Positions 19,423 to 59,223 of a stretch of 64,000 nt of DNA are shown here, piece by piece. Source of the stretch: Tubiluchus corallicola (lineage: Eukaryota > Animalia > Priapulida); the NCBI GenBank assembly GCA_030141605.1, contig JAQGDQ010000426.1, forward strand, positions 124,001 through 188,000. The letters run 5' to 3'. The notes below the pieces were generated by a model. It did not search any database and was not told the DNA's origin. It was given only the letters and a program-made list of their open reading frames with translations. Numbering within the stretch: position 1 is the stretch's first letter; each line of letters opens with the position of its first letter. Made by a program: the position numbers and the translations under genes.

Positions 19423-22400
19423 TCACTTCGTTAAGCTGTCTTTTAATTTTGACAAAGTTTTTTGAATGTGGTCAAGTACGCCATCGCCATCGGCGTCTAA
19501 GTCATATCTGTCCGGTATACCATCTCCATCTTTATCCTGTTTGTGATCAGGTACACCGTCACCATCATGGTCATCATCTAAATGGTCCGGAATGCCATCC
19601 TTGTCCAAATCTTCATGCACATCTAAAATGCCATCATTGTCGTCATCATGATCATGAATATCTAGGATGCCATCACCATCTGTATCGCGATGAGCATCGG
19701 TTTTGCCATCACCATCTGCGTCCAAATCCCACCTATCTGGAATGCCATCTTTGTCTTTATCTTGTAAATGATCTAGTATGCCATCACCATCATGGTCTTT
19801 GTCAAGACTATCAGGTATTCCATCCTTGTCAGTGTCCTGGTGAACATCGAGAATACCGTCACCATCAGCATCTGCATCCCATCTATCTGGTATCCCATCT
19901 TTATCGGCATCTTGATGCATGTCCAAAATGCCGTCACCATCATAGTCACTGTCCAAATGATCTGGTATACCGTCGCCGTCAGTATCTTCTGCCTTATCTG
20001 GCTGGCCATCTCCATCATGGTCAAAATCATCATGTGTATCAATTATTCCATCTCCATCATGATCATGGTCCCATCGATCAGGAATGTTATCTCCATCAGC
20101 GTCTTTCAGAAAGTCTAGAATTCCATCACCATCATGATCAGCATCCAATGAGTCTGGAATACCATCAGAATCTTTATCTTGCAGTCTATCCAGTATTCCA
20201 TCTCCATCAGCATCTATATCCCAGCGGTCTGGGATTCCATCACGATCACTGTCCTTTAATCTGTCGGGTATGCCGTCACCATCATAATCTTCATCAACAT
20301 TGTCTGGTATTCCATCACTGTCATGATCTTCCAAATGATCAGGTATGCCATCGTTATCATCATCAGTATCTACACAATCCGGAATTCCGTCTTGATCAAA
20401 ATCTAATTTGTGATCATCACAGTATTTATCTCCATCACTATCATGGTCCCACCTATCTGGAATGCCATCATTGTCACGATCCTCATCTTTGTCTAATATG
20501 CCATTTCCATCTGCATCTGCATCTAAACTACTGATGATTCCATCATTATCGCGGTCTTGTATAGAATCAAGTATATAATCCCCATCTTTGTCAATATCCC
20601 ACCTGTCTGGAATGTTATCTCCATCTAAATCTTCTAACTTGTCTAAAATTCCATCACCATCATAATCAGGATCCATATAGTCTGGAATTTTGTCGCCATC
20701 TCTATCTGTTAATCTGTCCTGTTTTCCATCTTGGTTTGCATCATTGTCCCATCTATCAGGTATACCATCATTATCACCATCCTCATTATTGTCGGGAATG
20801 CCATCATTGTCAAAATCTGAATCTTTGTAATCAGGAATGGAATCATCATCTGTGTCCCAATCTTTGTCAGGTATACCATCACCATCTGCATCTCTATCCC
20901 ATCGATCAGGAATGTCATCTCCATCCATGTCCTCATCTTTATCTGGAATACCATTTCCATTAGCATCTTGATCTATACTATTAGGAATGCCATCCTGATC
21001 ATCATCTTGAAGGTAATCAGGAATTCCATCATTATCAGCATCTATATCCCATCGATCAGGAATACCATCTTTATCTAAGTCTTCAAGTAAATCTAAAATT
21101 CCGTTTCCATCCATATCTGGGTCATATTTATCTGGTATGCCATCTCTATCTGCATCTTCTGTATTATCAAGTTTGTTATCTCCATCATAATCACGGTCAC
21201 GTTTATCAGGAACACCATCATTGTCCATGTCATATTCATTATCAGGAACTCCATCGCCATTAACATCAATGTCCCATCGATCGGGAATTCCATCTTTATC
21301 TTTGTCTTCAAGTTTGTCAAGGATACCATTTCCATCAAAGTCGGCATCAAGCTTATCTGGAATACCATCCTTATCTAAATCCTGCAGATAATCTGGGATG
21401 CCATCCCCATCAGCATCTCTATCATATCTGTCAGGAATTCCGTCCCCATCACTATCTTCATTGAAGTCAATGATACCATCACCATCTGAATCGGAATCTT
21501 TGTAATCAGGTATACCATCTCGATCTCTGTCATGAAGTAAATCTTTCTTTCCATCACCATCTGCATCAGAATCCCATCTGTCTGGTATACCATCATTGTC
21601 TTTATCTTCTTGCCAATCAATAATTTTGTTGCCATCGTAGTCACTGTCCCACAAGTCTGGAATGCCATCATGGTCTGTATCTTCTATTAGATCAATAACA
21701 CCATCTCCATCAGCATCAGCATCGAGGCTATCAGGAATCCCATCACTATCCATGTCCTTGATTGTATCAGGAATTCCCTTTCCTGATGGGTCTACGTCCC
21801 AACGATCTGGTATGTTATCTTTGTCAGCATCCTCGTATTTGTCTATTTTTCCATTATTATCATAGTTAGCATCCATCCAGTCAGGTACACCATCTTCGTC
21901 AAAGTCCTGAAATTTGTCGAGAATATTGTCGTTATTTGCATCAATATCCCATCTATCAGGAATTTTGTCGTCATCAAAATCTAGTTGGCTATCAATAATT
22001 CCATCACCATCATAATCTGGATCAAGGTAGTCAGGAATACCATCTTTATCGAGGTCTTCAGCAGTATCTGGAATACCATCATTGTCATCATCAGGATCTT
22101 TACAGTCTGGTATACCATCTTTATCTGTATCTACATGACTGCAGTCATTAGTATCATGGTCCCAGCGATCTGGGATTCCATCTTTGTCGGAATCTTCTAA
22201 ATAATCTAGTATACCATTACCATCATAGTCAGGATCTAAGCTATCTGGTATGCCATCATTGTCTTTATCTTGTTTTCTGTCCATAATGCCATCACCGTCT
22301 GCATCCATGTCCCAACGATCAGGTGTTCCATCACCATCAGAATCTTTGTGTATATCTAATATACCATCTCCATCAAAGTCAGCATCTAAATGATCTGGAA

Positions 22401-23009
22401 TTGAGTCTTTATCTAGATCTTCTTTTCTGTCTGGTATTCCGTCACCATCTGAGTCATGATTTTCAGGCAAATCCCATATGCCATCTGCATTGTAGTCGTG
22501 ATCCCATCTGTCTGGAATTCCATCTTTGTCTTGATCTTCTAGATGATCAGCAATACCATCCCCATCAAAATCTGGATCAATTCTATCCGGAATTCCATCT
22601 TTATCATAATCTTGTTTCCAGTCATCAATGCCATCACCATCTGCATCATGGTCCCACCTGTCTGGAATTCCATCTCCGTCTGCATCTTCTAAATGATCAG
22701 GAATACCATTGCCATCATAGTCTGAATCAAGATGATCTGGAATACCGTCATTATCAGTGTCTTCTAGTCTATCAGGTATGCCATCACCATCAAGGTCGGA
22801 ATCGTGGTGTAAATCAAGTACTCCATCACCATCATGATCTAAATCCCATCGGTCAGGAATGCCATCATTGTCAGCATCCTCCTTATAATCGGGAATACCA
22901 TCACCATCGATATCATGATCGTGGATATCTAAAATACCATCTTTGTCTATATCATGATGCTTTTTATCTTCTACGTCATTGTAAGAGTATTGTGATGCAT
23001 CATTCAGTT
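19423..23009 (-). CDS. Repeat exon of the secreted DxDxDG protein
   Basis: Matches the 1208-aa ORF. The residues before E-L-N-D in that ORF (MLHLMIVFCSIIS) are intronic polypyrimidine tract. Confidence 0.93.
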
Positions 23010-24725
23010 CTGAAATAATAGAACAAAAAACAATCATTAGATGCAACATTAGAGGCTAGCCAAGACCCGGCAAAAGATTTTACTCATAAACGCCAATAAT
23101 GCGCAAGCATGCTACATAGTGTTCGTTTATTATCTACGCACTTAAAAATAATCTGTTAGATATTACCATTAACGCAAACCCAGCAGAATGGAATGACGTC
23201 AGAGCAATGCAAGCGTCAACGAGAATCGCCCGAAATGGAGCTTCCGAAAAACTCCTCTTGGCGAATGTTTCCCCAAAAGCGACTCACATAAACGTGTAGC
23301 CCTATCCCCCTCTTTCCAAATAGCTGCAGATCTTCCTCCCAGACCCCAATCAGGTGCCGCTGGGACGTTTTTTCTACAGTGTGTTCTTCTAAAAGTTCCA
23401 AAAAATCGGATAGATGTGTCGGGAAAAACGAGCGTTGAGAAAAGTCGTGGGTTTGAACTTGCCATCAAACTATTATGAGCACTATTATACCGCGTGAGAA
23501 ACAAGAGGTATAAATTTTCGCCCCTCCGTTCCTCCCGGTGTCCCGGATTCGAAAAATGAACCATCAACGAGGCGACATTTGATCGAGAATTTTCGTTTGT
23601 AATATAGAACACCGCAAATGATGCAATCATTAAAACTGTAGCCTCAAGTCTTGTATATAAAAAACGTGCCATACCACAGATATTAATATTATAGAAGATT
23701 TAGATGTAAAACCCAATTTTTTGTTTCGTTTTTTTTGGTGAAATGAAACACCCTTATTTTGGTAGAAAAAGAACTGTTGCTCAATGAACCTTAACAGCCT
23801 AATTTAAACGCTACAAGAACGTTTAGGAAAGACTAGTTGCAAGAAATCTTCGTTGTATAAATTCACGTAACTCAATCACACTTTTGACAATAATACCCGT
23901 TTATATTATTTATTTTTATTGTGTTTAATGCTTCACAAATTGACTAATGACTGGCAAAAAGATGTGATTAAAAGTTCATCTCAACCTGGAATCGACCACG
24001 CTCTGTTTGCAAGTCAAATCCTCTTTCTAATAACAATCAATTCGTTCAACGCTTTCAGCCACTGTAGCACAGTTTAAACAATAGTCTAACATGTAATACT
24101 ATTGTTTAAACTGTGACTGTAGTGTATAAGATAGCTTTATTTGTTAACAAACTGGACGCAAACGTCATCGGTTAATCGCTTAAATGAAAAAGACTGACTA
24201 TCACAGCGTGACATAATCAATGTGAAAAAAACGGAAGCGGAAATAATCCCTGTGTCGAATTAAGAAACCAGAAACCAAGATTTTAGTTTCGTGAAAAGAA
24301 CGGTTTTTACCAAGGCTGTTTTTACCGCGAAAGATCTTGAAGACTGCAGTAGCATGCATGGCAGACTATATTTATTTGTTATTTGTTTTATTCACTCTCC
24401 TCATATACACAAATTACAAAAAATACATATTTAATATAGAAATTTGGCATAAAGACTACACATTACTCAAAATAAATATCTAAATAGCATTTCAAAAATT
24501 TTGTGCATGACTAGAGAAAGGGAATGGTCTGCACAACGTAGGCCTACATAAACCTGTATAAACGTTGATCAGCAAATTCTAAAATGCATTCACACCTTTA
24601 TAGGTTAGTAAAATGAGTACCTCTCACTGATCTGTAAAATGAATATCATACTCACCTTGAGCAAATGTCAGATGAGCTGCATTCCAAAGAGCGGAAATGC
24701 ATAAAAAACAAAGCATTAACTTCAT
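19423..24725 (-). CDS. Secreted Asp-rich DxDxDG (thrombospondin type-3-like) repeat Ca2+-binding protein, two exons, ~1218 aa
   Basis: Exon 1 (24725-24656) encodes the signal-peptide-like MKLMLCFLCISALWNAAHLTFAQ and ends CAAG|gtgagt. Exon 2 (23009-19423) begins after tttcag| in compatible phase 1 (E-L-N-D..). It is an uninterrupted 3.6-kb ORF of ~90 DxDxDG(I/V)(P/L)D motifs ending ..QKTLSKLKDSLTK*. Confidence 0.9.
24656..24725 (-). CDS. Signal-peptide exon of the secreted DxDxDG repeat protein
   Basis: ATG AAG TTA ATG CTT TGT TTT TTA TGC ATT...GCT CAA G|gtgagt: basic N-terminus, hydrophobic core and a T-F-A/Q cleavage-like end. Confidence 0.82.
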
Positions 24726-25835: not shown

Positions 25836-27296
25836 CATTGGTGCCAATGTTGTCTGTTAAATGAACGACGGTAAAAAAATGTTGGCTTTGTCTTTGTCTT
25901 TTCGTTTGTTTTTATCGATAACTTTTTTATTTTTGATAACGCCCACTAGGTGACCTGGCATATTCGTCACGTGACTGGAAACATCCGGGCCAGTGGCAGA
26001 GGGCCAACGCTGCTTGTTTTTCGTGCGCCACCACGGAAGTGAATTTGGTGTCATATAATTCTTCAACCGGTTAAGACAATCTTTTTATTCTGATACAGCA
26101 AGCATCAATAGCAACTTCATTAACTTGAACGATAATGAAAAGTTAAAATTCGCAATGCGTGTGTGTGTGTGGGGGGGGGGGGGGGGATAGCGACTGCGTT
26201 ATAACCAAATTAGTCGCCCGTGACATTTTTAAGTGTTTTAAAAAAGGAGTTAAATAGTACTAGCATGGTAAACATTGATAACATTATTTATTATTTTTTC
26301 ATGATATGCTAACTGTATCTATATTAAAGTTACATAAATTTCTTGTTTGTTATGGGTATTTTTTTGGTTCTGTAGCTATAATGTAATAGCTCTGTTTCAT
26401 ACTTTTGTATTTTGTTGTTGTTTTGTTGTATGTATGTCATTGTAATGTAATATATGCCAATAATAAATTGTATAATTGTTGTAAGTGAACAGTAAGCAAC
26501 AATTACAATGCAAAAACTGGGAAGTGTTTTGTAAAGATTTTATTTGTTTTTGTAAAACAAATCAAATGTTTCCTAGTGTTGAAAGAGCGCACACGAGTTA
26601 CTTTTCATTTACAAAGCTTTTATTTACAGAAGCACAGCACCCTAAAATAGGTTTAAACGTTCGAAAAACTTAATGAGGTATTTACAGTTACTTCGTTAGA
26701 TTTTTCAATAATTCTCTATATAATTTTCTACAATTTCGTTAGTGCATGCCGCAGGTGGGCCAAGATGCTCTCGATCAAAAGCTTCTTATTAGATCACTCT
26801 AGCTGACAAAATTAGACCGATTAAATCTAATTTAAATCAGATTTTACAATGAACGGGTTTTTAATTATGGGCTTTCCTATATTAGATTTTAATCAATGTT
26901 ACTATAATCTGAAATCCATTCCATTTCTCAACATTTTGTGATTCTAAGTAAATGATATCAACGTACGTATAAGTAATTAAGCACAGAGGGTCAATATGAC
27001 ATGGTTAAGCTGTGAAAAACTTAGAAGCTCTACGTTTCTAGTTACATCTATAAAACAACAACAAACAATAACAAAAAGGCCTATTCATTTTCCTTTGTAT
27101 CACAGCATCCGTAAACGTGTGAAATACTATGTGTTTATTTAGCAACGTTACTAAGAATTAAAGTCAAAAATATTTATTTACAAAACATTCTTGATGGCTT
27201 AGATTAACAGCAAACAGTCTGTTTGCGACACCATATGTCCGCGACGAATGCAAGTAGAGTACCAATTTTCATGAATTTTTTTGGGGAAAAATGCAT

Positions 27297-27404
27297 GGCC
27301 CAGTTTTACAAAACCGTTACCAACTTAAATATGTCGTTATTAATAGTTAAGCTAACGTAACAGAGACGACGTAAACTCAGTGACGACTTTGTGAAACTAG
27401 CCCC
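27297..27404. mobile_element. Small MITE (Harbinger-like ends)
   Basis: Imperfect TIR GGCCCAGTTTTACAAAA / TTTGTGAAACTAGCCCC. Confidence 0.45.
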
Positions 27405-28511
27405 AGGTCTCAAATCTAAGACGTTTTAAAAATAATAACCTTGCTATCGATCTGAATGCATTGCAAAAAGGAGTTTTTATTCCCTGGTGCTGTACGTACT
27501 TTTGCTGTTACTAGGACACGTCGGATAAGACGAGCTAATGTCGTACACAGGCTAATATCGGACAATGAACTTCACGTTGTTAATAAAAACAAAGAAACAT
27601 TGACACCCCTTTTCCCCTTCTTTATTAATAAAGGAAAGGAAAAAGCGGTTCATTGTACTTTGTTATTTTTATTAAATCCTGAAGCTCATTGACCGACATT
27701 AGTCATTTCTGCCATGTACGTAATTATTATATTTCACGATTTCTTTGTATATAAACAAATTTTGCAATAACTGCGCTGCCACTTTAACATCAAATAGCAT
27801 TCATATCAAATATTAATATTTCTCAACGTTGTGTTATTGTTTTTTTTCGCAATTATGAGACAAATAAAGATGAACTTACTTTATTAGACCTAGGTGTTAT
27901 GTAAAAATAATTTCTTTACTAGAATACTAAAATAAGGCATCAGTATAGATCATCGAAACAATATGTGTTAAATGCGAAATGTATCAGTTTCTGCTTTTCG
28001 TTACGAGGCAAAAATTAAAATTTTTGTATAGCTTGATCAATCTTTAGAAACTTGTTAAAAGCCGTGTCATCAAACGCAGATAAAGCTGGACAATAAATTC
28101 TTCAGCCCAAAATCTTTTTCAAAAAAATGAAGGATTAAATTACTGTTTGAAGGAAAATTCCCTCTGTGACATGATTTATCTATAAATTATAATCGAAAAC
28201 GCTGACTGGCTGACCAGGCATATGTATCTGTCACGTGACTGTCACGAATACATCCGGGCTTATGTCACTGACAGACGGCTGATGCAACCTGCGCAGGAAA
28301 TTTTATGCGCCACCACCTCAAAGTTAATTTCGTGGCGCATCTTGTATTCTGTGGTCGGTTTTGTGGAATTTTTATTTTTAAAACTTTCAGAATCAAATTT
28401 ATATATGGCTGACGTTGAAAATTTCAACACGTAACTTTTGGTATCTCCCTGATTTTAGTTGTACACAGCAGAGTGGAGGGACGAATAAATTGAGCATTGG
28501 TGATTTGCCTA

Positions 28512-28662
28512 TTATAGAGGTGACAGGGCTTCGATTTGGGCTTCCGTTAGATCCGGATGCCAGAAATCTACTAACAAAACTAGCCGATAGGCGTCGCCAT
28601 CGTTCCACACTTCGTGATCGAATGAGTCGTCGAAGATTATCACTTTGCCCTCTTTCCATGCT
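28512..28662 (-). CDS. ASPH: ASPH terminal exon with second Fe-ligand His
   Basis: AWKEGKVIIFDDSFDHEVWNDGDAYRLVLLVDFWHPDLTEAQIEALSPL*; ttctag| acceptor; minus-strand AATAAA at 28376-28371. Confidence 0.96.
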
Positions 28663-31600
28663 CTAGAAATGAAAAAAGTGTGATACTATCTAGGATTACT
28701 TATATTTTTTATACAAAGACATTCAAGGCAGATCTTTCTTCGTAATTGTTGTCTTGCAAATGCTTTAAGTAATGCTTACAAATGCTTTAAGTAATGCTAA
28801 TCAAAAAATTTTATAATTTGAATCTGCAACACTCAACAAAATCTGCCAGTAGTAACAACAATCAACAATTTTTGTAACTGCATATTTTATTTGTGTAATT
28901 TAGCATCACTATGCCAAATGTTTTTTTCCATTTATATTCACTTACCAGACATTGTGTTTATGTAATCATACCAGCGTTCTTTAATTTTACATTTGCAGTT
29001 ACATAGTTACAAGTATAGTTACAGTTGTTCTAATTTCACTATAGAACGCATTTCTAATTTACTTTTTTACCTCATAAACTTAATATTTACAGTCATTTGC
29101 AAAAGTATCAGACCACCTCCAGAAATCCACCCCCGCATCACTTGTAGCTAATATGCCTCGCCGACTGCAAGCAGCCATTGATGCTCGTGGGGGGGGGACA
29201 CAACATACTGTAATATCTTCAACAGGACTCTTAAATACAGTAAGAATACGAATCTGAACATGTTGTGTTAATTTTTCTAAGATTAGACAACAATAATGTT
29301 TGTCTTATCAGTATATTGAGAATTATATTATTTACTATTATTGTCCAAGACAGTGAGACTTAAAGGTAAAGTTCACAAAGCAGTGGTCAGACCCGCCCTA
29401 ATCTATGGGCTGGAAGCTGCACCTCTAAAGAAGGCAGAAGAGAAGAAAATGGATGTGGCGGAGATGAGGATGTTGAGATGGATTGTGGGAGTAACAAGAA
29501 GGGATAAAATCAGGAATAGTAATATTAGAGGAACAGTGAAAGTAGTGGAAGCCTCGAAAAGTATACAAGAGGCAAGATTGCGATGGTATGGGCACCTGAA
29601 AAGAAGAGTTGGGGAGGATCACGTGGGAAGGGAGGTCATGGAAATGGAAGTGCTGGGAAATAGAAGAAGAGGACGACCCAAGCTGAGATGGTATGAATGT
29701 ATTAACGGAGACCTTAGAGAGAAGAACATAAATGAAAAGATGGTCAACAACAGGAATGCATGGAGAAGACTTATTCACAACGGCGACCCCGCATAGGGAA
29801 AAGCTGGAAAGAAGAAGAAGAAGAAGAAGAAGAAGAAGACTGTTATTGTCCAAGCCAGTAGATTTGTTCTTACTAGAAATAATGAAGTTGAACTCAAATG
29901 AAAATGTATTTAACTCCTGTTGTTGATTAATTGCATTATTAACCCAAAGTGTTTTTATCGTTTCATAACAATTTTGACCTGTATTTCACATAAAATCTAA
30001 ATGCTATTTTAGTTTAATCAAGATTGACCATATTTTGTTGCCCGCTAATTCAAGTACATGTATTTTCTTTACTCTGGATTATATAGCAAATGCCATAATT
30101 TTAAAATCATTAATGTTTCCTAAATTAAACTGATAACATTAATGCCCACCAGTGTCTAAAATCATTTCATCTATATTCGGTATAGGATAGCAGACTAAAT
30201 GACTTTATAGTCTTTTCGCTATCCTTTCTCTAGTTCTAGATCTATCTATTCATTTTAACCATTCTTCAAAACTTATTAGCAATTCTTTTATTAATCATGT
30301 TTTACCGTAGTGTTATAAAGACATAAATAAATTAAAATTGAATTGAAAAAATAAAGAATTTTATGTTTCCATAAAGTCACGTTTTCCTAATAAATGCCTT
30401 TTTCTCAGGGGTGGTGCGATACTTCTGCAAATGGCTTTATCAAATAAACAAGAAAATCACGTGACATTTAACATTTATACTGTTTCAGTTATACTTTCTC
30501 ACCTTGTTTCCTCTCCTACCCTCATTCTAGCTCCTCTAGGAACTTTTAGCCCCAAGTGTGCACGTATCCTAGTGTTTGTGGGACCCGTATGCGGCCAAAC
30601 GTGGGTGCCAGGTTGCATCAGTGAAAACGTGACCTATAAAATTATAATATAGTTATGAAATGACCTTGAAAAAATAATAATCGGCTGCCCATTTAACCTC
30701 ACATTAAAAATTGTTCATAACAGCGCCATTGCATGTACAATTTTGCATAATAAAAAATCGATTAAAATAAACACGAAAATAAAATAGTGTGACCTTGACC
30801 TTACCTGACCTCTCTTACAGTTCGCTGCTGCTTCAATCTCGTCGATTATTGCACACGTTTTGGATGCTCGTCTGCAGTTTTTATAAATTTTTTGGCCTGC
30901 AAAAACGTTCAAATACTAAAGGATCACGTTATAGTTATAATACTCCTAGTTCAAAAGCATATTATCGTTGTAAATAGGGCCGGATTATGACTTTTGAAAC
31001 CCCTAGGCTAATGAAATTGTAAGGGGCCCCTATGATGGAGCCACCCTCTAAGTTGCTCGCGCTCGACTCGAGTATTTTTTGCTTGTGATATATTTCAGCT
31101 AAATTTCCCATATTTCAAATAAAGGGCTTTAAAGAAGGGCCCTTATCTCAAATAGAGGGCCTCGAACAACCGCACTTCGTCTCAAATAAAAGACCTTAAA
31201 AGAGATCCTTTATCTCATATGAGAAGCCACTTTAAAATTGGATTTTCAGATTTCCTGGCATCCTTTTCTGAAATTGAAATTTTATTTTAAGTTATATGTT
31301 GTTGGCATCCTTCTGTCTCGGAAGACAATGGAGTGTGCGCCAAGAGAGTCAGTTATTGATCACATTGATGGAGCTGCAGCGTCGACGGAAGACAATGGAG
31401 TGTGCGCCCAGAGAGTCAGTTATTGATCACAGTGATGGAGCTACAGCGTCGACTGTGGCTGAGCAATGCGAATGTCTCCAGGGCGCACGCCTGGGCAAGG
31501 TGTATGGAGATCCTGAGTTGCCCAGACAACAGGAAGCCCTCTCTTCCTCCCTGGTGTAGTCCAAAGGAAAGCGGAGCGATACGTTTGGCACCAGGTTGGT

Positions 31601-34600
31601 TGCAGGAGCTGCCGGAGTCAGTGAGCGAAGGCATAAGTTATATAAATTATTCAATAATGCAAGGCATTGGCCTGCAAGCTTGAGGGGTCCTGGGCTGCAG
31701 CGTATAATAGCCTACAGAGTAATCCAGCCCTGATTCTAAGATTAATTAGTATTAATAGGCAACACTATTAATTTCCATGAATTAATTAAACTCTATGAAT
31801 TTGTTGCAAAACATTTATATTACCTTGTTTGAATAAATGAAACCTTTTCCAGTCGCCGTCGGTGTAACTAAGGCCCTCGTCTTTGTACATACCGCTGGAG
31901 GAGTCCATGTATTTTATTGCTTCGTCTCGTATAGTCTCCCAGTTGTTTTCTAGAAGCTAAAATGCACAAAAGATTGTCGGAAGAGCAAAACCCGATAACT
32001 GATCTAATAGTAAGTTTATTAATCCAATTAAAATGTGATTAATCGTGCGCGTGTCATCCTATCAACACAGCCTGTAAGTTAATGCAAAAATGAGCCAATC
32101 TGCTCAAGTGAAGAAGTCAATTGGTGCCTTGGTGGGTCATTTGGCTAGTCAGTCGGTCAGTCAGTTAGTCGGTGCGTTTAGCACATTAATTAAAGAGGTG
32201 CATTTCTGTTGACTGGTTGGTTTGAGTTTAAGGTTTTTTTACAATGCACATGTGTGAGTATAATATACACGTTATAATGAACACGTACAGTCATCTGATT
32301 GGTCAATGGACAATTGTACACGTACAGTCATCTGATTGGTCAATGGACAATTGTACACGTGTACAGTCATCTGATTGGTCAATGGACAATTGTACACGTG
32401 TACAGTCATCTGATTGGTCAATGGACAATTGTACACGTGTACAGTCATCTGATTTGTCAATGGACAATTGTACACGTGTACAGTCATCTGATTGCTCAAT
32501 GGACAATTGAATTCGTCAGTCAATTATTTTGTTGTATTTTAAAACCACAACGTTTGGCTATTAAAAAATACAGTAAAAACACACAGGTAACTAAGAGAAA
32601 ACGAGAATTATACTATCTTAATCACAAATTGCAGATGTGCAAATTTTATGCCAAAAATGTTGGTCAGATACAACATAACTAACCTCAATGGCTTTTACTT
32701 GTTTAAGTTCTTCTGGCGTCCACCAGGGTTTTGCGGTGAGACCTTCCACGTTGTAGATATTTGGGGATCTCTGCCACATAGATGGATACAAACCTTTTCT
32801 AGCTCCAGCCTTGTAAACTCGGTACGCCTGAAACAAACAAACATCATCATTTCAGTATATATTACATAGTTACATAGCACTTAAACCCTTCCATATATTA
32901 CATAGTTAGCACTTCAGCCCTTCCATATATTACATAGTTAGCACTTAAACCCTTCCATATATTACATAGTTAGCACTTAAACTGTTCCATATATTACATA
33001 GTTAGCACTTAAACCCTTCCATATACTACATAGTTAGCACTTAAACCCTTCCATGTATTACATAGTTAGCACTTAAACCCTTCCATATATTACATAGTTA
33101 GCACTTAAACTCTTCCATATATTACATAGTTAGCACTTAAACCCTTCCATATATTACATAGTTAGCACTTAAACCCTTCCATATATTACATAGTTAGCAC
33201 TTAAACTCTTCCATATATTACATAGTTAGCACTTAAACCCTTCCATATATTACATAGTTAGCACTTAAACCCTTCCATATATTACATAGATAGCACTTAA
33301 ACCCTTCCAAATATTGCATAGTTAGCACTTAAACCCTTCCATATATTACATAGTTAGCACTTAAACTCTTCCATATATTACATAGTTAGCACTTAAACCC
33401 TTCCATATATTACATAGTTAGCACTTAAACCTTTCCATATATTACATAGTTAGCACTTAAACTCTTCCATATATTATATTGTTATGTAGTCAGACATTAC
33501 ACAACACTTGAGTTAAAAAAGACAGCAGGTTGTTATAGGATTTACATGTCAAATGTAGACCTACGTTAAGTCAAATGTAGATTTAGGTAATTCAAATGTG
33601 TCTTGGTAGCTCAAATATAGTCTTAGGCAGTTCAAATGTGTTAACAATGGTTTTCAACAAATCTTAAGCGTTTTTTGGTAAGTCAAATGTAGACACATGT
33701 CAAGTCAAATGTCCTATGTCTACATTTGACTTACCTAAGTCACATTTGAACTTTCCTATGTCCACATTTGACGTGTAAAACCTATAGTGCCGTAAAAAAT
33801 AATAGTACAAAATTATTACCTTTAATAGACAACGTAATTACCTGCTTGGAATCACAACTGAACTATTACCACATCTATTCTCAATGCTTAGCTTTTGGTC
33901 ACTTCCCCCTAAACTCTCATTAGCGTTTCTGTTCTGGTATTTGACCCTACCTAATCAGTCTATAATGTGGCAATCTATTACAGCCCATAATAGTTTCTAT
34001 CCATCAGTTATAAATGTGACCCGTTGTTCTTGCCGTATTTTTGACAGCAAGCAACACCTGAATAAATGTCTTATTTAATATTGTTTTCACGTTTAATGTG
34101 GACCAATTCTTTAATTAACTAATGTGGATTTATTTAACGTTATTATTTTTGTTTTCAGTTCTTTTTGGATAATTTGTATCATTTATACTGTTTTTATTAC
34201 TATTTTTTCTTATTTGTTTTTGTTTTTGTTATCAGCGGCATCACCGTTAATTTTTTATTTACTAATCTATTTATAACAAAGGACAGGAGACTAGATGACC
34301 CTATGGTCCTTCCCTGCTCTGCTCCATGATTATAATTACTTATTATTTAAAAAACTTTTGATGTTAAACTAATTGGAGAAAATAAATGTTCTATGTCTAT
34401 ATGTCTATGTCTATGTCTGTTTCGAATGCAGGCAAGGATGCCTTTCTTACCTCATGTTTTTTACCATCTCTGTAATAAATGTCCGCTAGGTGGTAGAAGA
34501 ATTTTGCGTCTGATGCACCGACTTCTTCACACTTTATGCCTTGCTCTAGGTGTGGTACAGACTCTTGTGCCTTGTTGTACGTAGTTTTCAAAATGAAACC

Positions 34601-37600
34601 CATGTACGCATGCGCAAGACAATTTTCCGGATCTTTCTGAAGAACCTGGTTTAAAGACAGTTAAAAGAAGGCGGTCATTGTTTGGATTACACACTTTGGC
34701 AAATACATACACTAAGTGATGTTCATTAATCTTTTTGACATTTTGCATTTTATATTAATTATTTTTAACATTAATTCTTATCTGAGTATCGCCCTATTCT
34801 AAACTGTCAAAATGCATAAAACAAAACGTCGTAAAACCAAAAATAAGTTTCCCACAGGATAAAATTAAACAAATAAATAAGTAATTATTAACTAATAATA
34901 AGTAAATAAACAAAAATGCAAATATATGAAAAATATGAGCAACGCAGAACTTTAAACAATGTAGTACTGTACACTACATATGTGTTGGGCTATTACTAAA
35001 CTTTAACTAGAAATTCTATAAAAAAAAATCCCTCTGGGTTGAAAAACGCACAGTTAAGGTAGTCTCCTGATTCTAAAAACCATAACACTAAAAAGCAGCG
35101 TCATTTTGTAATTCAAATTTACCAAGCATTTTTGCTGCTGAAATGAAATCAATACTGTCTTTCTTCGTTGTTTTACAGTTCACAAAAATCTCAGTTTTTA
35201 ACACTTTGATTACCAAGTCAGAACGTTCAGATACAGTCAGCATGAAAAAGAGGGACTCCACAGACTCTGTGATACGGGAAAGGAAGCAAACAAAAGCAAG
35301 TTTACGTACGAATGAAATTACAGGGTTGTTTGATCTACAACAAATCGTTGAACATCAAATGGCAACAACAACTACTGTTCAAAATAAGATAGAACTGTTC
35401 CGAGACTGTCATAATCAGTAAGAGAGGTCAAAATGCCCCTGGGTCTCATTTTTTGTTTTCCATTCAGAAGCGCTGGTTCCTCGCGGACTTCATCAGATGA
35501 AATCAATTTAAAAGACGATTTACGTTATACAAGTTCAGCTGATAAACTTCCCGAGGCACGAAAGCTTATGAGGGAAAAATAAAGCATTTTTGAGACTCTG
35601 TTTTAGATATAAGCACGTGGTGCCTCCTTGTGTTTGTTTTTTTTTGCAAAATGAGGCTGTTGATCGACAGGTGAGCTAGGACTTGAATTAGGCCATTGGC
35701 CTCATTTTGGAGACAGGATAGGAAAGAAGTCATTTTTGTTCAGTATGTAGTATCGCTTCATGATAAAATTTATCAGTCGAGTTCTGTTTAGCAAGTTAGT
35801 AAGATGCGGCAAAGATGTAAGTTTGATTTCCTCATATTTCGTCATGTCATATTATTATTAATTATCGTTATACCAGTTACTTAATTTTGGATTAGCAGAA
35901 AGAATTTTTATTTGCTTCAGATAAAACGAAGTCGAGTCGCACATATTATGTTAGTCAGTCAGTCAGTCAGTCAGTCAGTCAAGTCTGTCATGATGTGATA
36001 GTGATTTCGGAATATGACGATAATTGGCCATTTTCCATTGTCATGATGACAATAAAAATCATGAATTACATCTAAAAGACTCGTATTTAGCGCATGTCGG
36101 GCACAGACCCTAAGGGCATTTTGATTCCTTTTGACATCTACCATTCGATATTCATATCGGCTATCTGTCGGCTGAATCTTTCATCCTTCGCATAGCCAAA
36201 GAATAAAAATCTTGTAGCAGTTCTAATTTTGCCATAAAACGTTCGACATTATAAACAATTTTCGTCGCTACTTGATTGGTTCACTTTTCCAAAATGAAAA
36301 CCCAGCACCAGTTTTTTTTGGTGCCTTTGCTACCTTCTCAAATATCTTTTCAGCTTCCATTGGCTTTCCGAAGTCGAGCAATCCTATCCCCTGCTCATTT
36401 CTCAGCTCCATGCTATTCGGATACCTTTCTACCAGGTCGTCCAAAACTCGCTTGGCTTTCTTTTGGAACCCTGACAACAGAAGAAATAAGCAAACCTAAT
36501 TACAAGATTCAATCAATGGTAAAACGCAAATTACTGTCAAGGATTTTAGATTATTTTATTACTTTAGTGTTTGTTAGTGTCTCTGAGAGGCATTTATGAC
36601 AACTTCAAAAGTCTCAGCTGAATTTTCATGAAACCACTGATCTTTATTTCTGCAATATTTAAAAATTAAAACAGAAAGGCAAAAGTGACTGACATTGGCT
36701 AATTTTATGAAAAGTTACATAGTTTAGTTAGATTGACAGTTATTTAGTCCATTCATAAATATCAGTGAATAAATCTAAATAAAAATTAATAGAAGTAAAC
36801 TTACATCGTTGCGGCATATATCTAATGAAATGTTTCGCTAGCTTGTACAAGACACATGTTCACTCATACTACATAACAGCATAATGAAAACATAACTAGG
36901 TCAATGCCCACACTTTAAACTTTCTAGCTAGATGGAGCCACCTTGGCTACAAAATTAAAATTTATTAAGTCAGGTTCACACTGGCCTTAATAGTGTTCAC
37001 TCATTCTTAACCCCCCCCATACTGTTTCTCTTTTCATTCATGTATGTATGTCTTGGCCTGGCTTCTTTTTGTCTGCTGACAGATCAAGTTACTTGGTCTG
37101 TTGGCAGTCTGTTCCTGTGTTGTTGCTTGTCTCAGTTAAACCATTTATTTGTCAAGAGTAGCAGAGTCATTATGTAAGTACATTTCTTGTTTCTCACTGT
37201 TATTTTATTATTAATTGCTTTGCTTCTTTTTTTAAGCTCAAATTAGTTTCTTATATTTTGTTGTGATTATTCTTACTTACGCAATAAAGCTACTCAAACA
37301 TGAATTCTTATTACGTATTGAGTAACATGACTCTTATTCTTACTTAAAAAAGCTACTCAAACACGAATTCTTATTACGTATTAAGTAACATGACTCTTAT
37401 TCTTACTTAAAAAAGCTACTCAAACACGAATTCTTATTACGTATTAAGTAACATGAAACTTATTCTTACTTAAAAAAGCTACTCAAACATGAATTCTTAT
37501 TACGTATTAAGTAACATGAAACTTATTCTTACTTAAAAAAGCTACTCAAACATGAATTCTTATTACGTATTAAGTAACATGAAACTTATTCTTACTTACG

Positions 37601-40600
37601 CAATAAAGCTACTCAAACATGAATTCTTATTACGTATTAAGTAACATGAAACTTATTCTTACTTAAAAAACTACTCAAACAGGAATTCTTATTACGTATT
37701 AAGTAACATGGAACTTATTTTTACTTAAAAAAGCTACTCAAACACGAATTCTTATTACGTATTAAGTAACATGAAACTTATTCTTACTTAAAAAAGCTAC
37801 TCAAACATGAATTCTTATTACGTATTAAGTAACATGAAACTTATACTTACTTACGCAATAAAGCTACTCAAACATGAATTCTTATTACGTATTAAGTAAC
37901 ATGAAACTTATTCTTACTTAAAAAAGCTACTCAAACACGAATTCTTTTTACGTATTGAGTAACATGAAACTTATTCTTATTAAAAAAGCTACTCAAACAC
38001 GAATTCTTGTTACGTATTGAGTAACATGAAACTTATTCTTACTCAAAAAAGCTACTCAAACATGAATTCTTATTACGTATTGAGTAACAGGAAACTTATT
38101 CTTACTTAAAAAAGCTACTCAATGAATATTTTGACTCTGGGCATCATGAAAGTAGTAATCTCCCCCAATTACGATGTTTGTAAACAACTGTAATGCTTAG
38201 AGATTATTGTTTGTCACTAGTTTTTCCAAATTCTACAATGAAATAAATAAACAAACTGGGAATTCGAACGAAATGGAAAAGCCTCAAGGGTTTTTGAATG
38301 TAGGACAACGTATATTTATTTCGGATGTTAGAGAGAAGTTTCCACTTACACTTATGTAAATACGGATCTGTTAGAAAACACACACGGAAATTACGAAAAC
38401 ATTCTTACCTTACTGTTGTCGTCTCAGTATCACTGGAAGAAAAATAAAATAATCGGTTACCTCTAAATCGGAGTGCCTCCACTTCCTTTATGCCTGCATA
38501 AATCACAAGAACCAGTGGGGCGTCAGGTATTTCTACAACGTGGCCAAACTCTGCTACAGCATCTTCCAATAATTTGTTGCTCTTTTTGAAATCTGCTAGT
38601 TCGTGAAGAACCAATCCTTTGCCGAAATGCGCTCTCGGACTCTTAGGATGCGATCGAAGAATCTCGTCATATTTGTCTTTGGCGGCGTGGTACATGCCCT
38701 GCGTTCATTAATTTACATTGTCACTCTTAAACAAGCAAATGTCCAGAGCACGCATTCGTAAATTTATCATATATGGTTATCATATACGGTTATTTTACAT
38801 ACGTAGAAGGGGACTTTAGGAAATGATTGCACTTCCAACTTCCTGTGTACTGAAGAAACCGAAAAGAATAGATAAAAATCTATTGCACTGTGAAAAAGAG
38901 TATTTAGTTTTACATAAAGGAGATTTATCATACCTAATGCCTGATAATACGCAGCACTGACCATGAATGGCCATGAATGTCCACGCGTTCATAATGGTTT
39001 CTCATCGAAAATGCCGCCATTTCTTCAACAAATTAACTGATTTTTTTTATTTTTAGCACTAAAATGTCGAAAGGATTTAAAAAACACGTTAAATAAAAAT
39101 CATTATAATGATTAGAATATTTTAAAAAATACATTAATATTTTAAGTATAGCTATCATTTCCTGATACCCCGTGTAATTTCTATTCCAACATTAGTGATT
39201 AAATGGTGTCAAACATATAAAATGCCTAAGTTGCCAAAATATGTGTTAACTCACAGTGTGAACAAAACCAGAACGCCATTAATTATGATCTCCGATTCCA
39301 AAATGCAGGTCCCAGATCTACAATCTCAGGACACCAAAAGACTTTATCTTAAACCTTGATATTGAATAGGTAATGCTGTAGGCAACTGGTGATTATGAAT
39401 GGCATTACAAAAGAAAAAATTGTTGGAAAACTGTGCGAGAAATGCTTGTCAAAGCTTTTTGATTACTGTGCCAGAAAGGCAAAGTTTGTTTTACCTTGTG
39501 CAATAAGTCATCTGCCATGTCAAGGTCTTTACGAATCTTGCTGTCATATTCATTTGTGATGTCTTTATTTCTGTACTTCAGCCGCTTGCCAACTCCCAAA
39601 TCTTGTTCCCTTTCAGCTGCTTCTCGTGCACTTACTAAGTTCAGGGCATCAAAATCTTCAGCTACTGTTGCATCACTGACAAAGCTATCAGATTCGTCTA
39701 CGTCGCTTTGACCACCTTTACGAGCGTAGCCATGAGGTTGTGCTTTTTGGAGTGAATCTAGTATGCCATCGCCGTCAGCATCATCATCCAGGTAATCAGG
39801 AATTCCATCACCATCTGTGTCAATCTGCTTCCAGTCTGGAATTCCATCGCCATCCTTGTCTTGCAGCTTATCTGGAATGCCGTCACCATTTGCATCATCG
39901 TCTAGATAATCTGGAATTCCATCGCGATCCGTATCAATTTGTTTCCAGTCTGGAATTCCGTCACCATCTTTGTCTTGTAGATGATCAGGTATGCCATCGT
40001 TATTGTCATCGTCATCAAGATAATCCGGAATTCCATCACCGTCGGTATCAATTTGTTTCCAGTCTGGAATTCCATCACCATCTTTGTCTTGCAGGTGATC
40101 AGGTATGCCATCATTGTTATCATCGTCATCCAAATAATCTGGAATTCCATCACCATCTGTATCTATCTGTTTCCAGTCTGGAATTCCATCACCATCTTTG
40201 TCTTGTAGGTGATCAGGTATGCCATCATTATTGTCGTCATCATCAAGATAATCTGGAATTCCATCACCATCTGTGTCGAGGTCTTTGTCTTCCTCAATAC
40301 TTGCAAGTTTTCTTTTTTTGAAACCACTTCCTTGTTTACTGTCTGGAATACCATCACCATCTGCATCATCATCCAAATAATCTGGAATTCCGTCCCCATC
40401 TGTATCGACTTGCTTCCAATCTGGAATTCCATCACCATCTTTGTCCTGTAAGTGATCTGGTATTCCATCATTATTATCATCATCATCTAAATAATCTGGA
40501 ATTCCATCACCATCTGTATCAATCTGTTTCCAGTCTGGAATTCCATCTCCATCTTTGTCCTGTAAATGATCTGGGATGCCATCATTGTTATCATCATCAT

Positions 40601-42624
40601 CTAGGTAATCTGGAATTCCATCTCCGTCAGTATCGATTTGTTTCCAGTCTGGAATTCCATCTCCATCTTTGTCCTGTAAATGATCTGGGATGCCATCATT
40701 GTTATCATCATCATCTAGGTAATCTGGAATTCCGTCTCCATCAGTATCAATCTGCTTCCAGTCTGGAATTCCATCTCCATCTTTGTCTTGTAAATGATCT
40801 GGGATGCCATCATTGTTATCATCATCATCTAGGTAATCTGGAATTCCGTCTCCATCAGTATCAATCTGCTTCCAGTCTGGAATTCCATCTCCATCTTTGT
40901 CTTGCAAGTGATCAGGTATGCCATCATTATTGTCATCATCATCTAGGTAATCAGGAATTCCATCACCATCTGTGTCAATCTGCTTCCAGTCTGGAATTCC
41001 ATCACCATCCTTGTCCTGCAACTTGTCTGGAATACCGTCACCATTTGCATCATCATCTAGGTAATCTGGGATTCCATCACCATCAGTGTCTATTTCTTGC
41101 CAGTCTGGAATTCCATCTCCATCTTTATCACCTTGTAGTCTATCTGGTATACCGTCGCCATCTGCATCATCATCAAGGTAGTCAGGAATACCATCACCAT
41201 CTGTATCAACCTGTTTCCAGTCTGGAATTCCATCACCATCTTTGTCTTGAAGATGATCAGGTATGCCATCATTGTTGTCGTCATCATCTAGATAATCTGG
41301 AATTCCATCACCGTCTGTATCAACTTGTTTCCAATCAGGAATTCCATCACCATCCTTATCCTGTAACTTGTCTGGAATACCATCTCCATTTGCATCATCA
41401 TCTAGGTAATCTGGGATCCCATCACCATCAGTGTCAATCTCCTGCCAGTCGGGAATTCCATCTCCATCTTTATCACCTTGTAGTCTATCTGGAATGCCAT
41501 CGCCATCTGCATCATCATCAAGATAATCAGGAATGCCATCCCCATCAGTATCAATCTGTTTCCAGTCTGGAATTCCATCACCATCTTTATCTTGTAAATG
41601 ATCTGGGATACCATCATTGTTGTCGTCGTCATCTAGGTAGTCCGGAATTCCGTCACCATCAGTATCGATTTGTTTCCAATCTGGAATTCCATCTCCATCT
41701 TTGTCCTGTAAATGATCTGGGATGCCATCATTGTTGTCGTCATCATCTAGGTAATCTGGAATTCCATCGCCATCAGTATCAATCTGTTTCCAGTCTGGAA
41801 TTCCATCTCCATCTTTGTCCTGCAGATGATCAGGTATGCCATCATTATTGTCATCGTCATCTAGGTAATCTGGTATTCCGTCCCCATCAGTATCGATTTG
41901 TTTCCAGTCTGGAATTCCATCTCCATCTTTGTCCTGTAAATGATCTGGGATGCCATCATTGTTATCATCATCATCAAGGTAATCAGGAATGCCATCACCA
42001 TCAGTATCGATTTGTTTCCAGTCTGGAATTCCATCTCCATCTTTGTCTTGCAAGTGATCAGGTATGCCGTCATTATTGTCATCATCGTCTAAGTAATCTG
42101 GAATTCCATCACCGTCTGTGTCAATCTGCTTCCAGTCTGGAATTCCGTCACCATCTTTGTCCTGCAACTTGTCTGGAATGCCATCACCATTTGCGTCATC
42201 ATCTAAGTAATCTGGTATACCATCTCCATCGGTGTCGATATCATGTAATGCTTCCTTGTCTAGTAATGTTTGGCCACCTTTTTCAACTTTTTGTTTTGAC
42301 GAATGTTCTAAAATAAAATGAGCACAATCAGTGCAAGAGGATATGCGCCCACATAATCCAATATAAGAACAAATGTAAAAAACTGTATCTCTATTTTTTT
42401 CAATTTCAATTACAACTTGAAAGACTTTATTAGATTGTGTTTGTAAGTGCTGCAGTGATTTTCTACAGGAAAAATATGGCATTAATCAGCAAAGGAAAAC
42501 CTGTTCATTTCTCACCTTGAACTGTTGCGTCTGTGTCTAAAACAAAGAAAAACACTCCACCGACCAGCAGTAGAAAGACAAAAAGTACACAAAATGTGAG
42601 TTTATTGGATCCTTTCCCTTCCAT
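28512..42624 (-). CDS. ASPH: Aspartyl/asparaginyl beta-hydroxylase (type II ER membrane 2OG/Fe(II) dioxygenase) with a giant DxDxDG-repeat luminal domain, 10 coding exons, ~1380 aa
   Basis: In-frame GT-AG exons: 42624-42516 (TM anchor), 42307-39495 (repeats), 38698-38461, 36470-36334, 34645-34451, 32827-32684, 31956-31824, 30896-30805, 30633-30503, 28662-28512. The TPR region (PKSPRAHFGKG, GFILK, FFYHLAD) and oxygenase motifs (WQRS..PWWT, LENNWETIRDE, GDW, PGTHVWPHTGPTN, FDDSFDHEVW, RL...VDFWHPDL) closely follow vertebrate ASPH. Confidence 0.95.
29350..29838 (+). mobile_element. 5'-truncated RTE-clade LINE in last ASPH intron
   Basis: ORF with RT C-terminal motifs ([44 protein letters not shown]); (GAA)n tail; ~16-bp TSD ACT(A/G)TTATTGTCCAAG. 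Confidence 0.92.
29933..30346 (+). repeat. Second copy of the 5019-5437 dispersed repeat
   Basis: Direct sequence match including the AATTG tail. Confidence 0.75.
30503..30633 (-). CDS. ASPH: ASPH oxygenase exon with first Fe-ligand His
   Basis: VTFSLMQPGTHVWPHTGPTNTRIRAHLGLKVPRGARMRVGEETR; ttatag| and |gtgaga. Confidence 0.96.
30805..30896 (-). CDS. ASPH: ASPH oxygenase exon
   Basis: GQKIYKNCRRASKTCAIIDEIEAAANCKRGQ; ttgcag| and |gtaagg. Confidence 0.93.
30975..31732. mobile_element. Probable hAT-type non-autonomous element in ASPH intron
   Basis: TIR TAGGGCCGGATTA / TAATCCAGCCCTG; degenerate TSD; GC-rich interior with a ~69-bp tandem duplication. Confidence 0.6.
31824..31956 (-). CDS. ASPH: ASPH oxygenase exon
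   Basis: LLENNWETIRDEAIKYMDSSSGMYKDEGLSYTDGDWKRFHLFKQG; ttttag| and |gtaata. Confidence 0.93.
32283..32508. repeat. Minisatellite, 39-bp unit x ~6
   Basis: GTACAGTCATCTGATTGGTCAATGGACAATTGTACACGT repeated. Confidence 0.95.
32684..32827 (-). CDS. ASPH: ASPH hinge exon
   Basis: AYRVYKAGARKGLYPSMWQRSPNIYNVEGLTAKPWWTPEELKQVKAIE; tttcag| and |gttagt. Confidence 0.94.
32857..33478. repeat. Minisatellite, 32-bp unit x ~19
   Basis: ATATATTACATAGTTAGCACTTAAACCCTTCC repeated. Confidence 0.96.
33538..33782. mobile_element. Foldback MITE with internal TCAAATGT subrepeats
   Basis: Ends GGATTTACATGTCAAATGT / ACATTTGACGTGTAAAACC, flanked by TATA on both sides. Confidence 0.7.
34451..34645 (-). CDS. ASPH: ASPH TPR exon
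   Basis: VLQKDPENCLAHAYMGFILK..ESVPHLEQGI..DAKFFYHLADIYYRDGKKHE; accag| and |gtaaga. Confidence 0.93.
36334..36470 (-). CDS. ASPH: ASPH TPR exon
   Basis: GFQKKAKRVLDDLVERYPNSMELRNEQGIGLLDFGKPMEAEKIFEK; gtcag| and |gtagca. Confidence 0.92.
37268..38121. repeat. Minisatellite, ~63-bp unit x ~13-14
   Basis: AAAGCTACTCAAACATGAATTCTTATTACGTATTAAGTAACATGAAACTTATTCTTACTTAAA repeated. Confidence 0.95.
38461..38698 (-). CDS. ASPH: ASPH TPR exon
   Basis: GMYHAAKDKYDEILRSHPKSPRAHFGKG..LRFRG; cgcag| and |gtaacc. Confidence 0.93.
39495..42307 (-). CDS. ASPH: ASPH exon 2: ~21-22 x 38-aa DxDxDG repeats plus start of TPR region
   Basis: ttttag|AA acceptor; repeat unit DTDGDGIPDYLDD-DDNNDGIPDHLQ-DKDGDGIPDWKQI. 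It ends ..NEYDSKIRKDLDMADDLLHK|gtaaaa, resembling ASPH NKFDKTIKAELDAAEKLRK. Confidence 0.92.
42516..42624 (-). CDS. ASPH: ASPH first coding exon, signal-anchor TM (MEGKGSNKLTFCVLFVFLLLVGGVFFFVLDTDATVQ)
   Basis: Short basic N-tail plus ~21 hydrophobic residues; donor CAAG|gtgaga. An acceptor at 42657/42656 implies an upstream non-coding exon. Confidence 0.85.
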
Positions 42625-42795
42625 TGTTAGCTGTGTTGAACCTCAGAAAAAACATTCTGCAATTAAAAAGTAGTACATCAGAACAGACCTTTGTAAGCAT
42701 GATTCTTGTACACGATTTTTTTTACAAAATAATGCATACAAGAGAAACATAGTAAAGAAAGTAACGACGCATAATCGTATGGAAATTCACAATTT

Positions 42796-58880: not shown

Positions 58881-59223
58881 GTCTTCTTTGTGAATTTTTT
58901 ATCCGACCTTCATTAAGTCATTTGATGTGAATCACAGATTACATGTAGAAACAGAATTTCAAATCAACGCTCGAGAACAGCGTAACAAAGTTTCGCCGTA
59001 TCTACACCATAGCTGCAGAACTTGCTGGTTTCCCCCCACCTTCCCGAGGTACAGTAGTTCGTACAAGTTCCAAAAATAGTTGACATTTTCTTTGCTTTTC
59101 CTTTCGACTACAACTTGAGCCATTTCGTTATATTTCCACTAATTCTTTTTCTGAATAGTGATGACTGTACGAAATGCGTTTACTAACTTACTCAATTACG
59201 TCATTGAAGATCAAAAGGTAATC

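Follow-up and report, generated by a model that had tools for sequence, protein, structure and literature searches.

A stalk of thrombospondin-type loops in an ASPH gene of the priapulid Tubiluchus corallicola: a predicted Ca2+ store of likely fusion origin

Main finding

A stretch of 64,000 nucleotides (nt) from the priapulid Tubiluchus corallicola (GenBank assembly GCA_030141605.1, contig JAQGDQ010000426.1, positions 124,001 to 188,000; hereafter the window, in which all positions below are counted) contains, on its minus strand, an ASPH gene in which one large exon, joined in frame between a hydrophobic segment and the TPR and oxygenase domains, encodes 64 cysteine-free loops of the D-x-D/N-x-D-G type. 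We consider it probable (roughly 60%) that this is a spliced ASPH whose stalk is made of thrombospondin-type loops, likely acquired through fusion with a copy of the neighbouring gene, and whose product would act as a high-capacity Ca2+ store of the endoplasmic reticulum (ER) or secretory pathway. By analogy, it would work like mammalian ASPH and its truncated product junctate, in which one gene provides both an enzyme and a luminal Ca2+ buffer, with other material in the place of the latter.

Gene structure and transcript support

The gene comprises ten exons separated exclusively by GT-AG introns, and encodes a single frame of 1,380 residues with a lone terminal stop. Transcript support comes from contigs of run X2, one small run that is RNA by guess and approximately 92% identical to the window (approx. 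8% diverged). The features are as follows:

42516..42624, minus strand: coding exon 1, with the ATG, a 10-residue tail, a 19-residue hydrophobic segment (residues 11-29) and a phase-1 donor; joint 42307/42516 in X2
39495..42307, minus strand: exon 2, 2,813 nt, with a leader of approximately 24 residues, the loop array, a linker and the first conserved ASPH helix; both joints in X2
39746..42236, minus strand: loop array (residues 61-891), 64 cysteine-free D-x-D/N-x-D-G-I-P-D loops in a 13+12+13 triplet
40278..40331, minus strand: single basic interruption of the array, which leaves runs of 50 and 14 loops
38461..38698, minus strand: exon 3 (TPR); joint 38697/39494
36334..36470, minus strand: exon 4 (TPR), from the frame and a Pfam scan
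34451..34645, minus strand: exon 5 (TPR), His493 changed to Tyr and Arg526 to Lys; X2 joint
32684..32827, minus strand: exon 6 (hinge); X2 joints
31824..31956, minus strand: exon 7 (start of the oxygenase, acidic loop), Gln627 changed to Arg; joint 31956/32684
30805..30896, minus strand: exon 8, from the frame
30503..30633, minus strand: exon 9, keeping His679, Ser668, Arg686, Arg688 and His690; Lys666 changed to Thr
28512..28662, minus strand: exon 10, keeping Asp721, His725 and Arg735; stop
26530..28511, minus strand: likely ASPH 3' untranslated region of approximately 2 kilobases (kb), putative extent; AATAAA at 26624 and 26544; X2 contigs at 26544-27242 and 28072-28633

Exon 2 is flanked by an AG acceptor and a GT donor, starts in phase 1, ends in phase 0 and is in frame with both the hydrophobic exon (42624-42516) and the eight TPR/oxygenase exons, its remaining two frames holding 24 and 167 stops. 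An earlier note on this DNA, made from the letters alone, had described a 2813-nt repeat exon lying in frame between these two parts. Size and frame are borne out, but the exon also carries non-repeat sequence, approximately 24 residues before the array and 83 after it. Since the last 30 or so of these residues can be aligned with the pre-TPR part of other ASPHs, exon 2 is the array plus ancestral ASPH sequence, and no self-contained cassette.

The joints of exon 2 to the N-terminal and TPR exons, proposed in the same note, are both present in X2 contigs (42516/42307 and 39494/38697, with canonical ends), as are two junctions further downstream. Both contigs at the edges of exon 2 extend into the array, and at the 3' end of the exon the run differs from the window at 27 of 329 letters. 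None of the 6 joints listed for X2 alone skips exon 2, and no X2 contig spans the entire exon.

Exon 1 likely begins at the acceptor 42656, and the ATG at 42624 is preceded by an in-frame stop; the 5' X2 contig fits this acceptor, covering approximately 137 nt of the exon, to about 42652 (an estimate from the depth table). The hydrophobic segment, with a mean hydropathy of 3.08 over its 19 residues, may be either a signal anchor or a signal peptide, and the predicted cytosolic tail that precedes it has 10 residues versus 32-90 in 41 other ASPHs. A short out-of-frame upstream open reading frame (ORF; 42602-42655, minus strand) extends over the ASPH start, and an N-terminal extension could arise in another isoform from a further possible acceptor at 42641 (minus strand). 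At its 3' end, the frame of exon 2 runs 29 codons into intron 2 (39405-39494, minus strand) before a stop, with an AATAAA at 39051. Read-through into this intron would be a possible route to a truncated isoform devoid of the enzyme; no X2 contig supports such a junctate-like read-through.

The loop array

The 64 loops counted, all free of cysteine, agree with the 60-65 DxDxDG loops expected from the earlier note. They fall into three classes (22 A, 22 B and 20 C) and follow one another at a spacing of 13 residues (44 times), 12 residues (18 times) or, once, 30 residues. The 13+12+13 pattern stands as well, with 22 unit starts where 21-22 copies of a 38-residue unit had been announced, but only 18 of these are exact 38-residue units, the others being two units of 39 residues, an interrupted one of 43 residues and a final A+B pair. 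Asp at loop positions 1, 5 and 9 and Gly at position 6 are found in 64 of the 64 loops, and Tyr or Trp stands five residues after Asp5 in 42 of them. The array as a whole holds 298 Asp and 4 Glu in 833 residues, and there is no cysteine anywhere in exon 2.

At the DNA level, the exact units are all distinct (18/18) and differ at 4-28 of 114 nt, while units identical in protein differ on average in 12.5 of their 38 codons. Over the 153 non-independent pairs of exact units, the proportion of synonymous differences (pS) is 0.66 and that of non-synonymous differences (pN) 0.028, i.e. a pN/pS of 0.04. Because these units differ in DNA almost solely at silent sites, the array is no assembly artefact. 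It would seem to be under purifying selection, with a constraint beyond what a plain spacer would need.

The stalk in other ASPHs

The strict loop was found in none of 294 ASPH-like proteins (a set in which fragments and many fish isoforms are counted). Of the 150 best representatives (at 50% identity), 65 possess the TPR part, the oxygenase and at least 100 N-terminal residues, and again none of the 65 has the strict loop; two of them show 3 and 5 loose loop matches within Asp-rich low-complexity sequence. The architecture is thus absent from the ASPHs of this set, invertebrate ones included. Species were looked up for 20 of the 150 representatives and comprise molluscs, arthropods, echinoderms, amphioxus, a sponge and vertebrates; the representatives named to species do not include an annelid, brachiopod, nemertean, phoronid or bryozoan.

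The N-terminal parts of the 65 representatives measure 101-995 residues and are often acidic, as in the acidic low-complexity stalk of arthropod ASPHs, so that a long stalk is ordinary and the loop array unusual. Such sequences show the stalk of ASPH to be a labile slot, filled repeatedly with unrelated material. In the crinoid and whelk ASPHs (P0250 and P0247, respectively), the stalk contains Lys/Glu/Pro tandem repeats peculiar to each protein and unrelated to the loops.

The novelty claimed by the earlier note for the whole architecture therefore holds for the loops, absent from 294 homologues, but not for the idea of a large luminal Ca2+ buffer or spacer. Indeed, junctate has a Ca2+ segment at the same place and long acidic stalks are common, so what is new here is limited to the material of the stalk and its origin. 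No description of an ASPH with thrombospondin type 3 (TSP3)-like repeats was found in the literature searched, most subscription journals and all supplements lying outside its coverage.

Thrombospondin and microbial relatives of the array

The array scores 63.5 bits against Pfam TSP_3 (PF02412; cut-off 25), and a profile of the arrays matches COMP (E = 2e-11), a bacterial OmpA protein, BamM and TSP-1/2. Single-sequence searches of the PDB with the array returned nothing significant, and the leads from the ESM Atlas were all weak and of the TSP3 type (no higher than 0.78 and 0.86). Like the TSP3 region of thrombospondins (PF02412; COMP 3fby, TSP-2 1yo8/2rhp, TSP-1 1ux6), the array possesses the DxDxDGxxD loop and the 13+12 doublet; unlike it, the array is devoid of cysteines, linkers and a lectin-like C-terminal domain, with 50 loops contiguous and then the TPR/oxygenase part. 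As exon 2 has no cysteine and a TPR domain follows the array instead of the lectin-like domain, we regard the array as TSP3-like, without its being the signature domain of thrombospondins.

With the array as a query, the best 120 of 6,359 matches are all microbial-type TSP3 proteins, none of them with PF05118. Microbial TSP3-like arrays (PF18884; surface proteins of the type IX secretion system and OmpA kinds; PDB 5wtl and 9n2d chain D) share the same loop, often in many copies (up to 42 in these best 120), whereas no more than three of their loops are contiguous (six with looser spacing), with linkers in between. Bacterial contamination or recent horizontal transfer was considered and is ruled out by the spliceosomal introns of the gene and by a loop contiguity unlike that of all 120 microbial matches.

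A neighbouring loop-array gene and the origin of the fusion

A second gene for a loop array follows on the same strand, the ASPH stop lying less than 4 kb upstream of it:

24656..24725, minus strand: exon 1, predicted signal peptide, phase-1 donor
19423..23009, minus strand: exon 2, approximately 85 DxDxDG loops in a 13+12 pattern, then a stop

Its product of 1,218 residues (34% Asp) consists almost solely of loops and looks secreted; a search for a named relative of this free-standing protein found none. The gene encodes six cysteines, four of which form two short pairs within the array. The X2 contigs leave the first 300 nt of the large exon and the splice joint uncovered, which is uninformative on the expression of this gene.

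In both genes, a short hydrophobic exon comes first, followed by a phase-1 intron in a Gln^Glu (Q^E) context and a leader of approximately 20 residues. In both arrays, the HDID motif occurs only at the start, and LQK/IQK is found once per gene, right at the array end; moreover, the last ASPH loop scores best against the last of the neighbour's 85 loops, and reciprocally. Linker-free runs reach 50 loops in ASPH and 20 in the neighbour. For two of the three registers, the best 38-residue window has 26-27 identical residues in the neighbour versus at most 23 in microbes, while for the remaining register the neighbour is equalled or surpassed by 10 microbial proteins.

The same Q^E phase-1 intron and the matching first and last loops make it likely that ASPH is a chimera with a copy of the neighbouring loop-array gene, the neighbour and the 5' half of ASPH being likely paralogues of common origin. 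As for the direction of the duplication, the more varied loops of the neighbour and the short, 10-residue tail of ASPH favour a neighbour-type gene as the donor; the reverse, in which the neighbour would be a freed junctate-like half gene, is a less probable alternative. We propose that a gene made of a signal exon and an array exon would have been duplicated in tandem and fused in frame upstream of the ancestral pre-TPR coding sequence, after which one triplet would have been expanded and homogenised under purifying selection.

Intron-split arrays in metagenomes

A scan of metagenome contigs, the seeds of which came from the ASPH array, yielded 12 loci, four of which look microbial. In L003-L006, L008, L010 and L012, the arrays have neither cysteines nor linkers, are interrupted by GT-AG introns and follow a 13+13+16 period; L002 is a further short intron-split array. 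These arrays resemble that of ASPH by their runs of 6-21 loops, by A and B loops that are exact in some loci and by an identity of 69-72% (alignment A2), a similarity biased upward because of the origin of the seeds; they differ from it by their many exons, their period and, in L004 and L006, an RQEL-stop terminal exon. This exon was present in both of the loci where a terminal exon was found, of 8 scanned (L004, approx. 3877-3940; L006, approx. 2600-2655), with poly-Gln/Lys before the RQEL-stop.

We take the RQEL end to fit the ER-retrieval pattern [KRHQSA][DENQ]EL. Such ends suggest an ER-luminal role for these arrays, and RQEL-type loop-array genes are a candidate family of ER-luminal Ca2+ stores. 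No ASPH exon was found within the DNA of the metagenome loci, an exact degenerate DNA pattern had no match in the metagenome contigs, and none of 10 ORFs guessed from the loci was present in the protein collection. A peptide with such a loop, from an earthworm hydrolysate, has been assigned to an Owenia gene model (PMC11547318).

The enzyme

PF05118 (Asp_Arg_Hydrox) is detected above its cut-off in exon 9 (60.1 bits) and exon 10 (57.6 bits), and human AspH is the best PDB match for each of exons 3, 5, 7, 9 and 10. In the TPR part, exon 3 matches residues 359-419 of human AspH (E = 1e-7) and exon 5 residues 481-541 (E = 8e-9); single TPR exons score below the Pfam TPR cut-offs, and a homologue search with TPR exon 3 as a query gave no match. 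The closest named homologues are those of molluscs (46-49% identity), and the best invertebrate orthologue is Liolophura sinensis XP_064596923.1 (49% over 434 residues).

All of the iron ligands (His679, His725) and 2-oxoglutarate ligands (Arg735, Ser668, His690 and Arg688; roles from PMC6817910) are present, and further residues are kept (Arg686, Gln664, Trp625, Asp721, Asp616 and Glu617). Judging from these residues, the far end of the protein would remain an Fe(II)/2-oxoglutarate hydroxylase.

Two residues of the substrate pocket are replaced, Lys666 by Thr and Gln627 by Arg. Among 161 close homologues, Lys is found in 155 and Thr in none at the former position, Gln in 147 and Arg in none at the latter; with a looser cut-off, the pair Thr666 and Arg627 occurs in 0 of 238 homologues and each change alone once. 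Both original residues hold the carboxylate of the substrate Asp (PMC6817910), and a simulation study found that K666A impairs substrate positioning (PMC10915816). The new Arg627 may compensate for the charge lost with Lys666. These two positions are a feature of specificity and no part of the definition of the ASPH family. In the TPR pocket, His493 is Tyr, as it is in 12 of 160 homologues, and Arg526 is Lys, as in 17 of 161. Overall, this ASPH differs at 30 of 146 conserved columns (up to 57 in some homologues), and in a FastTree phylogeny of 83 rows, from which most fish isoforms and fragments were left out, its branch length is 0.82 versus a median of 0.32 and it falls in no supported clade.

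Function and alternative explanations

With exons 1 and 2 joined in one frame to the TPR and oxygenase exons, the hydrophobic segment would direct the whole chain beyond residue 30 to the lumen, and would probably anchor the protein. Each D1-D/N3-D5-G6-D9 loop would bind one or two Ca2+, the Dx[DN]xDG site of thrombospondin being binuclear (PMC3123361), and a full load would amount to approximately 64-128 Ca2+ per chain versus 21 for junctate. The chain would stiffen when loaded with Ca2+ and relax as the store empties, while its far end would be kept as a hydroxylase.

The general plan is that of human AspH (PDB 5jqy and 9fvu; PF05118), with a hydrophobic N-terminal segment, a luminal stalk, TPR repeats and an oxygenase; unlike human AspH and its orthologues, the protein has a 64-loop stalk, a 10-residue tail, Thr666, Arg627, Tyr493 and Lys526. 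Its functional logic, by analogy, would be the one known from junctate. With junctate and ERGP, which are truncated mammalian ASPH products, it shares an acidic Ca2+ segment of high capacity (here predicted) at the same position in the gene. The mammalian segment consists of an EF-hand and a Glu-rich domain (bioRxiv 10.1101/2022.05.13.491370), which in junctate/ERGP is gamma-carboxylated and of low complexity; the junctate segment binds 21 mol Ca2+ per mol with a Kd of 217 uM and enlarges the releasable store (PMC1868564). Unlike junctate/ERGP, the array is Asp-rich, periodic and approximately four times longer than the ERGP 85-310 luminal fragment.

Several points weigh against the interpretation as an ER store of fusion origin. 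Transcript support comes from the single, diverged run described above. Instead of an anchor, the hydrophobic segment could be a signal peptide that is cleaved off, and the product has no KDEL-like C-terminal end, which, together with the short tail, leaves ER retention a prediction. DNA similarity between ASPH and the neighbour is weak, that of exon 1 being reached by 33 of 300 shuffles and that of the 5' flank of exon 2 by 2 of 300, and the duplication may have run in the reverse direction. The RQEL loci may be unrelated to ASPH, and Asp-rich regions can form the DxDxDG motif de novo (PMC3123361). Structure prediction from the single array sequence gave a failed fold (pLDDT 45), and a model from a 14-row alignment, built without Ca2+, reached a pLDDT of 78 with a pTM of 0.36. 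The top three Foldseek matches of the latter are thrombospondins (the best being TSP-2 and TSP-1; E from 2e-4 to 4e-3), with a TMq of 0.23-0.26 and a root-mean-square deviation (rmsd) of 12-13, and VIA-align returned TSP-2 alone (Z 2.4, rmsd 10.9, 105 aligned); given these low TM-scores and this Z, the structural likeness to thrombospondin is local. Lastly, Ca2+ binding, topology, ER location, enzyme activity and the direction of the fusion are all deduced from the sequence.

Among the other explanations, it is unlikely that the array is a spacer only, i.e. a structural stalk, stiffened by Ca2+, that keeps the TPR/oxygenase head a long way from the membrane and the Ca2+ of which stays bound without any buffering. 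The lability of the stalk slot (101-995 residues, unrelated repeats in the crinoid and the whelk, acidic low-complexity sequence in arthropods) would fit such a role, and structural rather than regulatory Ca2+ is common for this motif (PMC3123361); however, the near-invariant residues (pN of 0.028 at a pS of 0.66) and the 64 sites exceed the needs of a spacer, and the mammalian segment is a measured buffer (PMC1868564). Less likely still is a secreted or surface protein involved in mineral handling, exon 1 being cleaved and the array and enzyme being exported, with the neighbour product, into a Ca-rich matrix, granule or skeleton. The 10-residue tail, the missing KDEL-like end, the secreted appearance of the neighbour and a Thr-x-Ala site after the hydrophobic segment, which the -3/-1 rule of signal peptide cleavage allows to be read as a cleavage site, all point in this direction. 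Against it, the 19-residue segment and its mean hydropathy of 3.08 suit an anchor, the ER lumen is the normal place of action of ASPH, an enzyme dependent on Fe(II) and 2-oxoglutarate (PMC6817910), and no link of such arrays to shell matrix was found in the literature searched. A step lower in probability, and thus improbable, stands the broad proposal of an undescribed animal family of cysteine-free and linker-free DxDxDG arrays acting as Ca2+ stores in the ER and secretory pathway (secreted, RQEL-retained or, as here, fused), one of which would have been grafted onto a pocket-rewired ASPH that edits, or is gated by, its own loops instead of EGF domains.

We give lower odds again to a re-targeted enzyme, the altered pocket of which would hydroxylate Asp in the DxDxDG loops, its own or those of the neighbour, and not in EGF domains, thereby tuning their affinity for Ca2+. 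Indeed, the two replaced residues, conserved as they are elsewhere, hold the substrate carboxylate, His493 and Arg526 are changed too, the branch is long, and the Tyr or Trp five residues after Asp5 in 42 of the 64 loops reproduces the Asp103/Tyr108 spacing of an EGF substrate. Yet human ASPH needs a covalently closed ring of 10 residues and rejects a linear peptide, and the array has no cysteine; Arg627 could simply make up for the charge that went with Lys666, conserved columns are broken just as often in other divergent ASPHs, and in the neighbour only 8 of 84 loops have Tyr at the corresponding position. As for an artefact or a dead gene, i.e. a mis-assembly of a repeat gene with ASPH or an unexpressed expansion, the lack of a contig spanning exon 2 speaks for it, but 18 of 18 units that differ in DNA almost solely at silent sites, GT-AG introns throughout, an intact frame and the presence of both junctions in contigs approximately 8% diverged from the window make it the least probable explanation, and a scarcely tenable one.

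Ca2+ does inhibit the hydroxylation of some ASPH substrates. The idea that the array lowers free Ca2+ so as to keep EGF substrates unfolded was nevertheless rejected, since free Ca2+ is not lowered by a buffer at equilibrium.

Other features of the window

A multi-exon phosphagen kinase gene lies at 7762-15299 on the plus strand, its exon near 11492-11657 matching PF00217; from its motifs, we take it to be arginine kinase-like. A CCTAAC telomere-like interstitial repeat (14551-14734) is located within an intron of this gene. Intronic minisatellites were observed at 37267-38122 (63 nt), 32857-33484 (32 nt), 32285-32509 (39 nt) and 9310-9770 (93 nt), as well as ORF fragments at 29320-29796, 3570-3989, 58494-58898 and 46856-47164, which by their motifs are presumably remnants of retrotransposons or transposases.

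Implications

The role of the ASPH luminal stalk is known from mammals only, where it is a disordered, Glu-rich buffer. The 64 countable, near-identical sites of the Tubiluchus array would make capacity, affinity and the coupling between Ca2+ and the hydroxylase measurable by trimming the number of units, and a likely gene fusion is here preserved together with a gene of the donor type, which lies within 4 kb beyond the ASPH stop. The two pocket changes are, for their part, a natural variant for asking what else ASPH can hydroxylate. More generally, the gene points to an unstudied family of loop arrays in animals, the members of which, some of them with an ER-retrieval-like tail, may be invertebrate stand-ins for calsequestrin-type stores.

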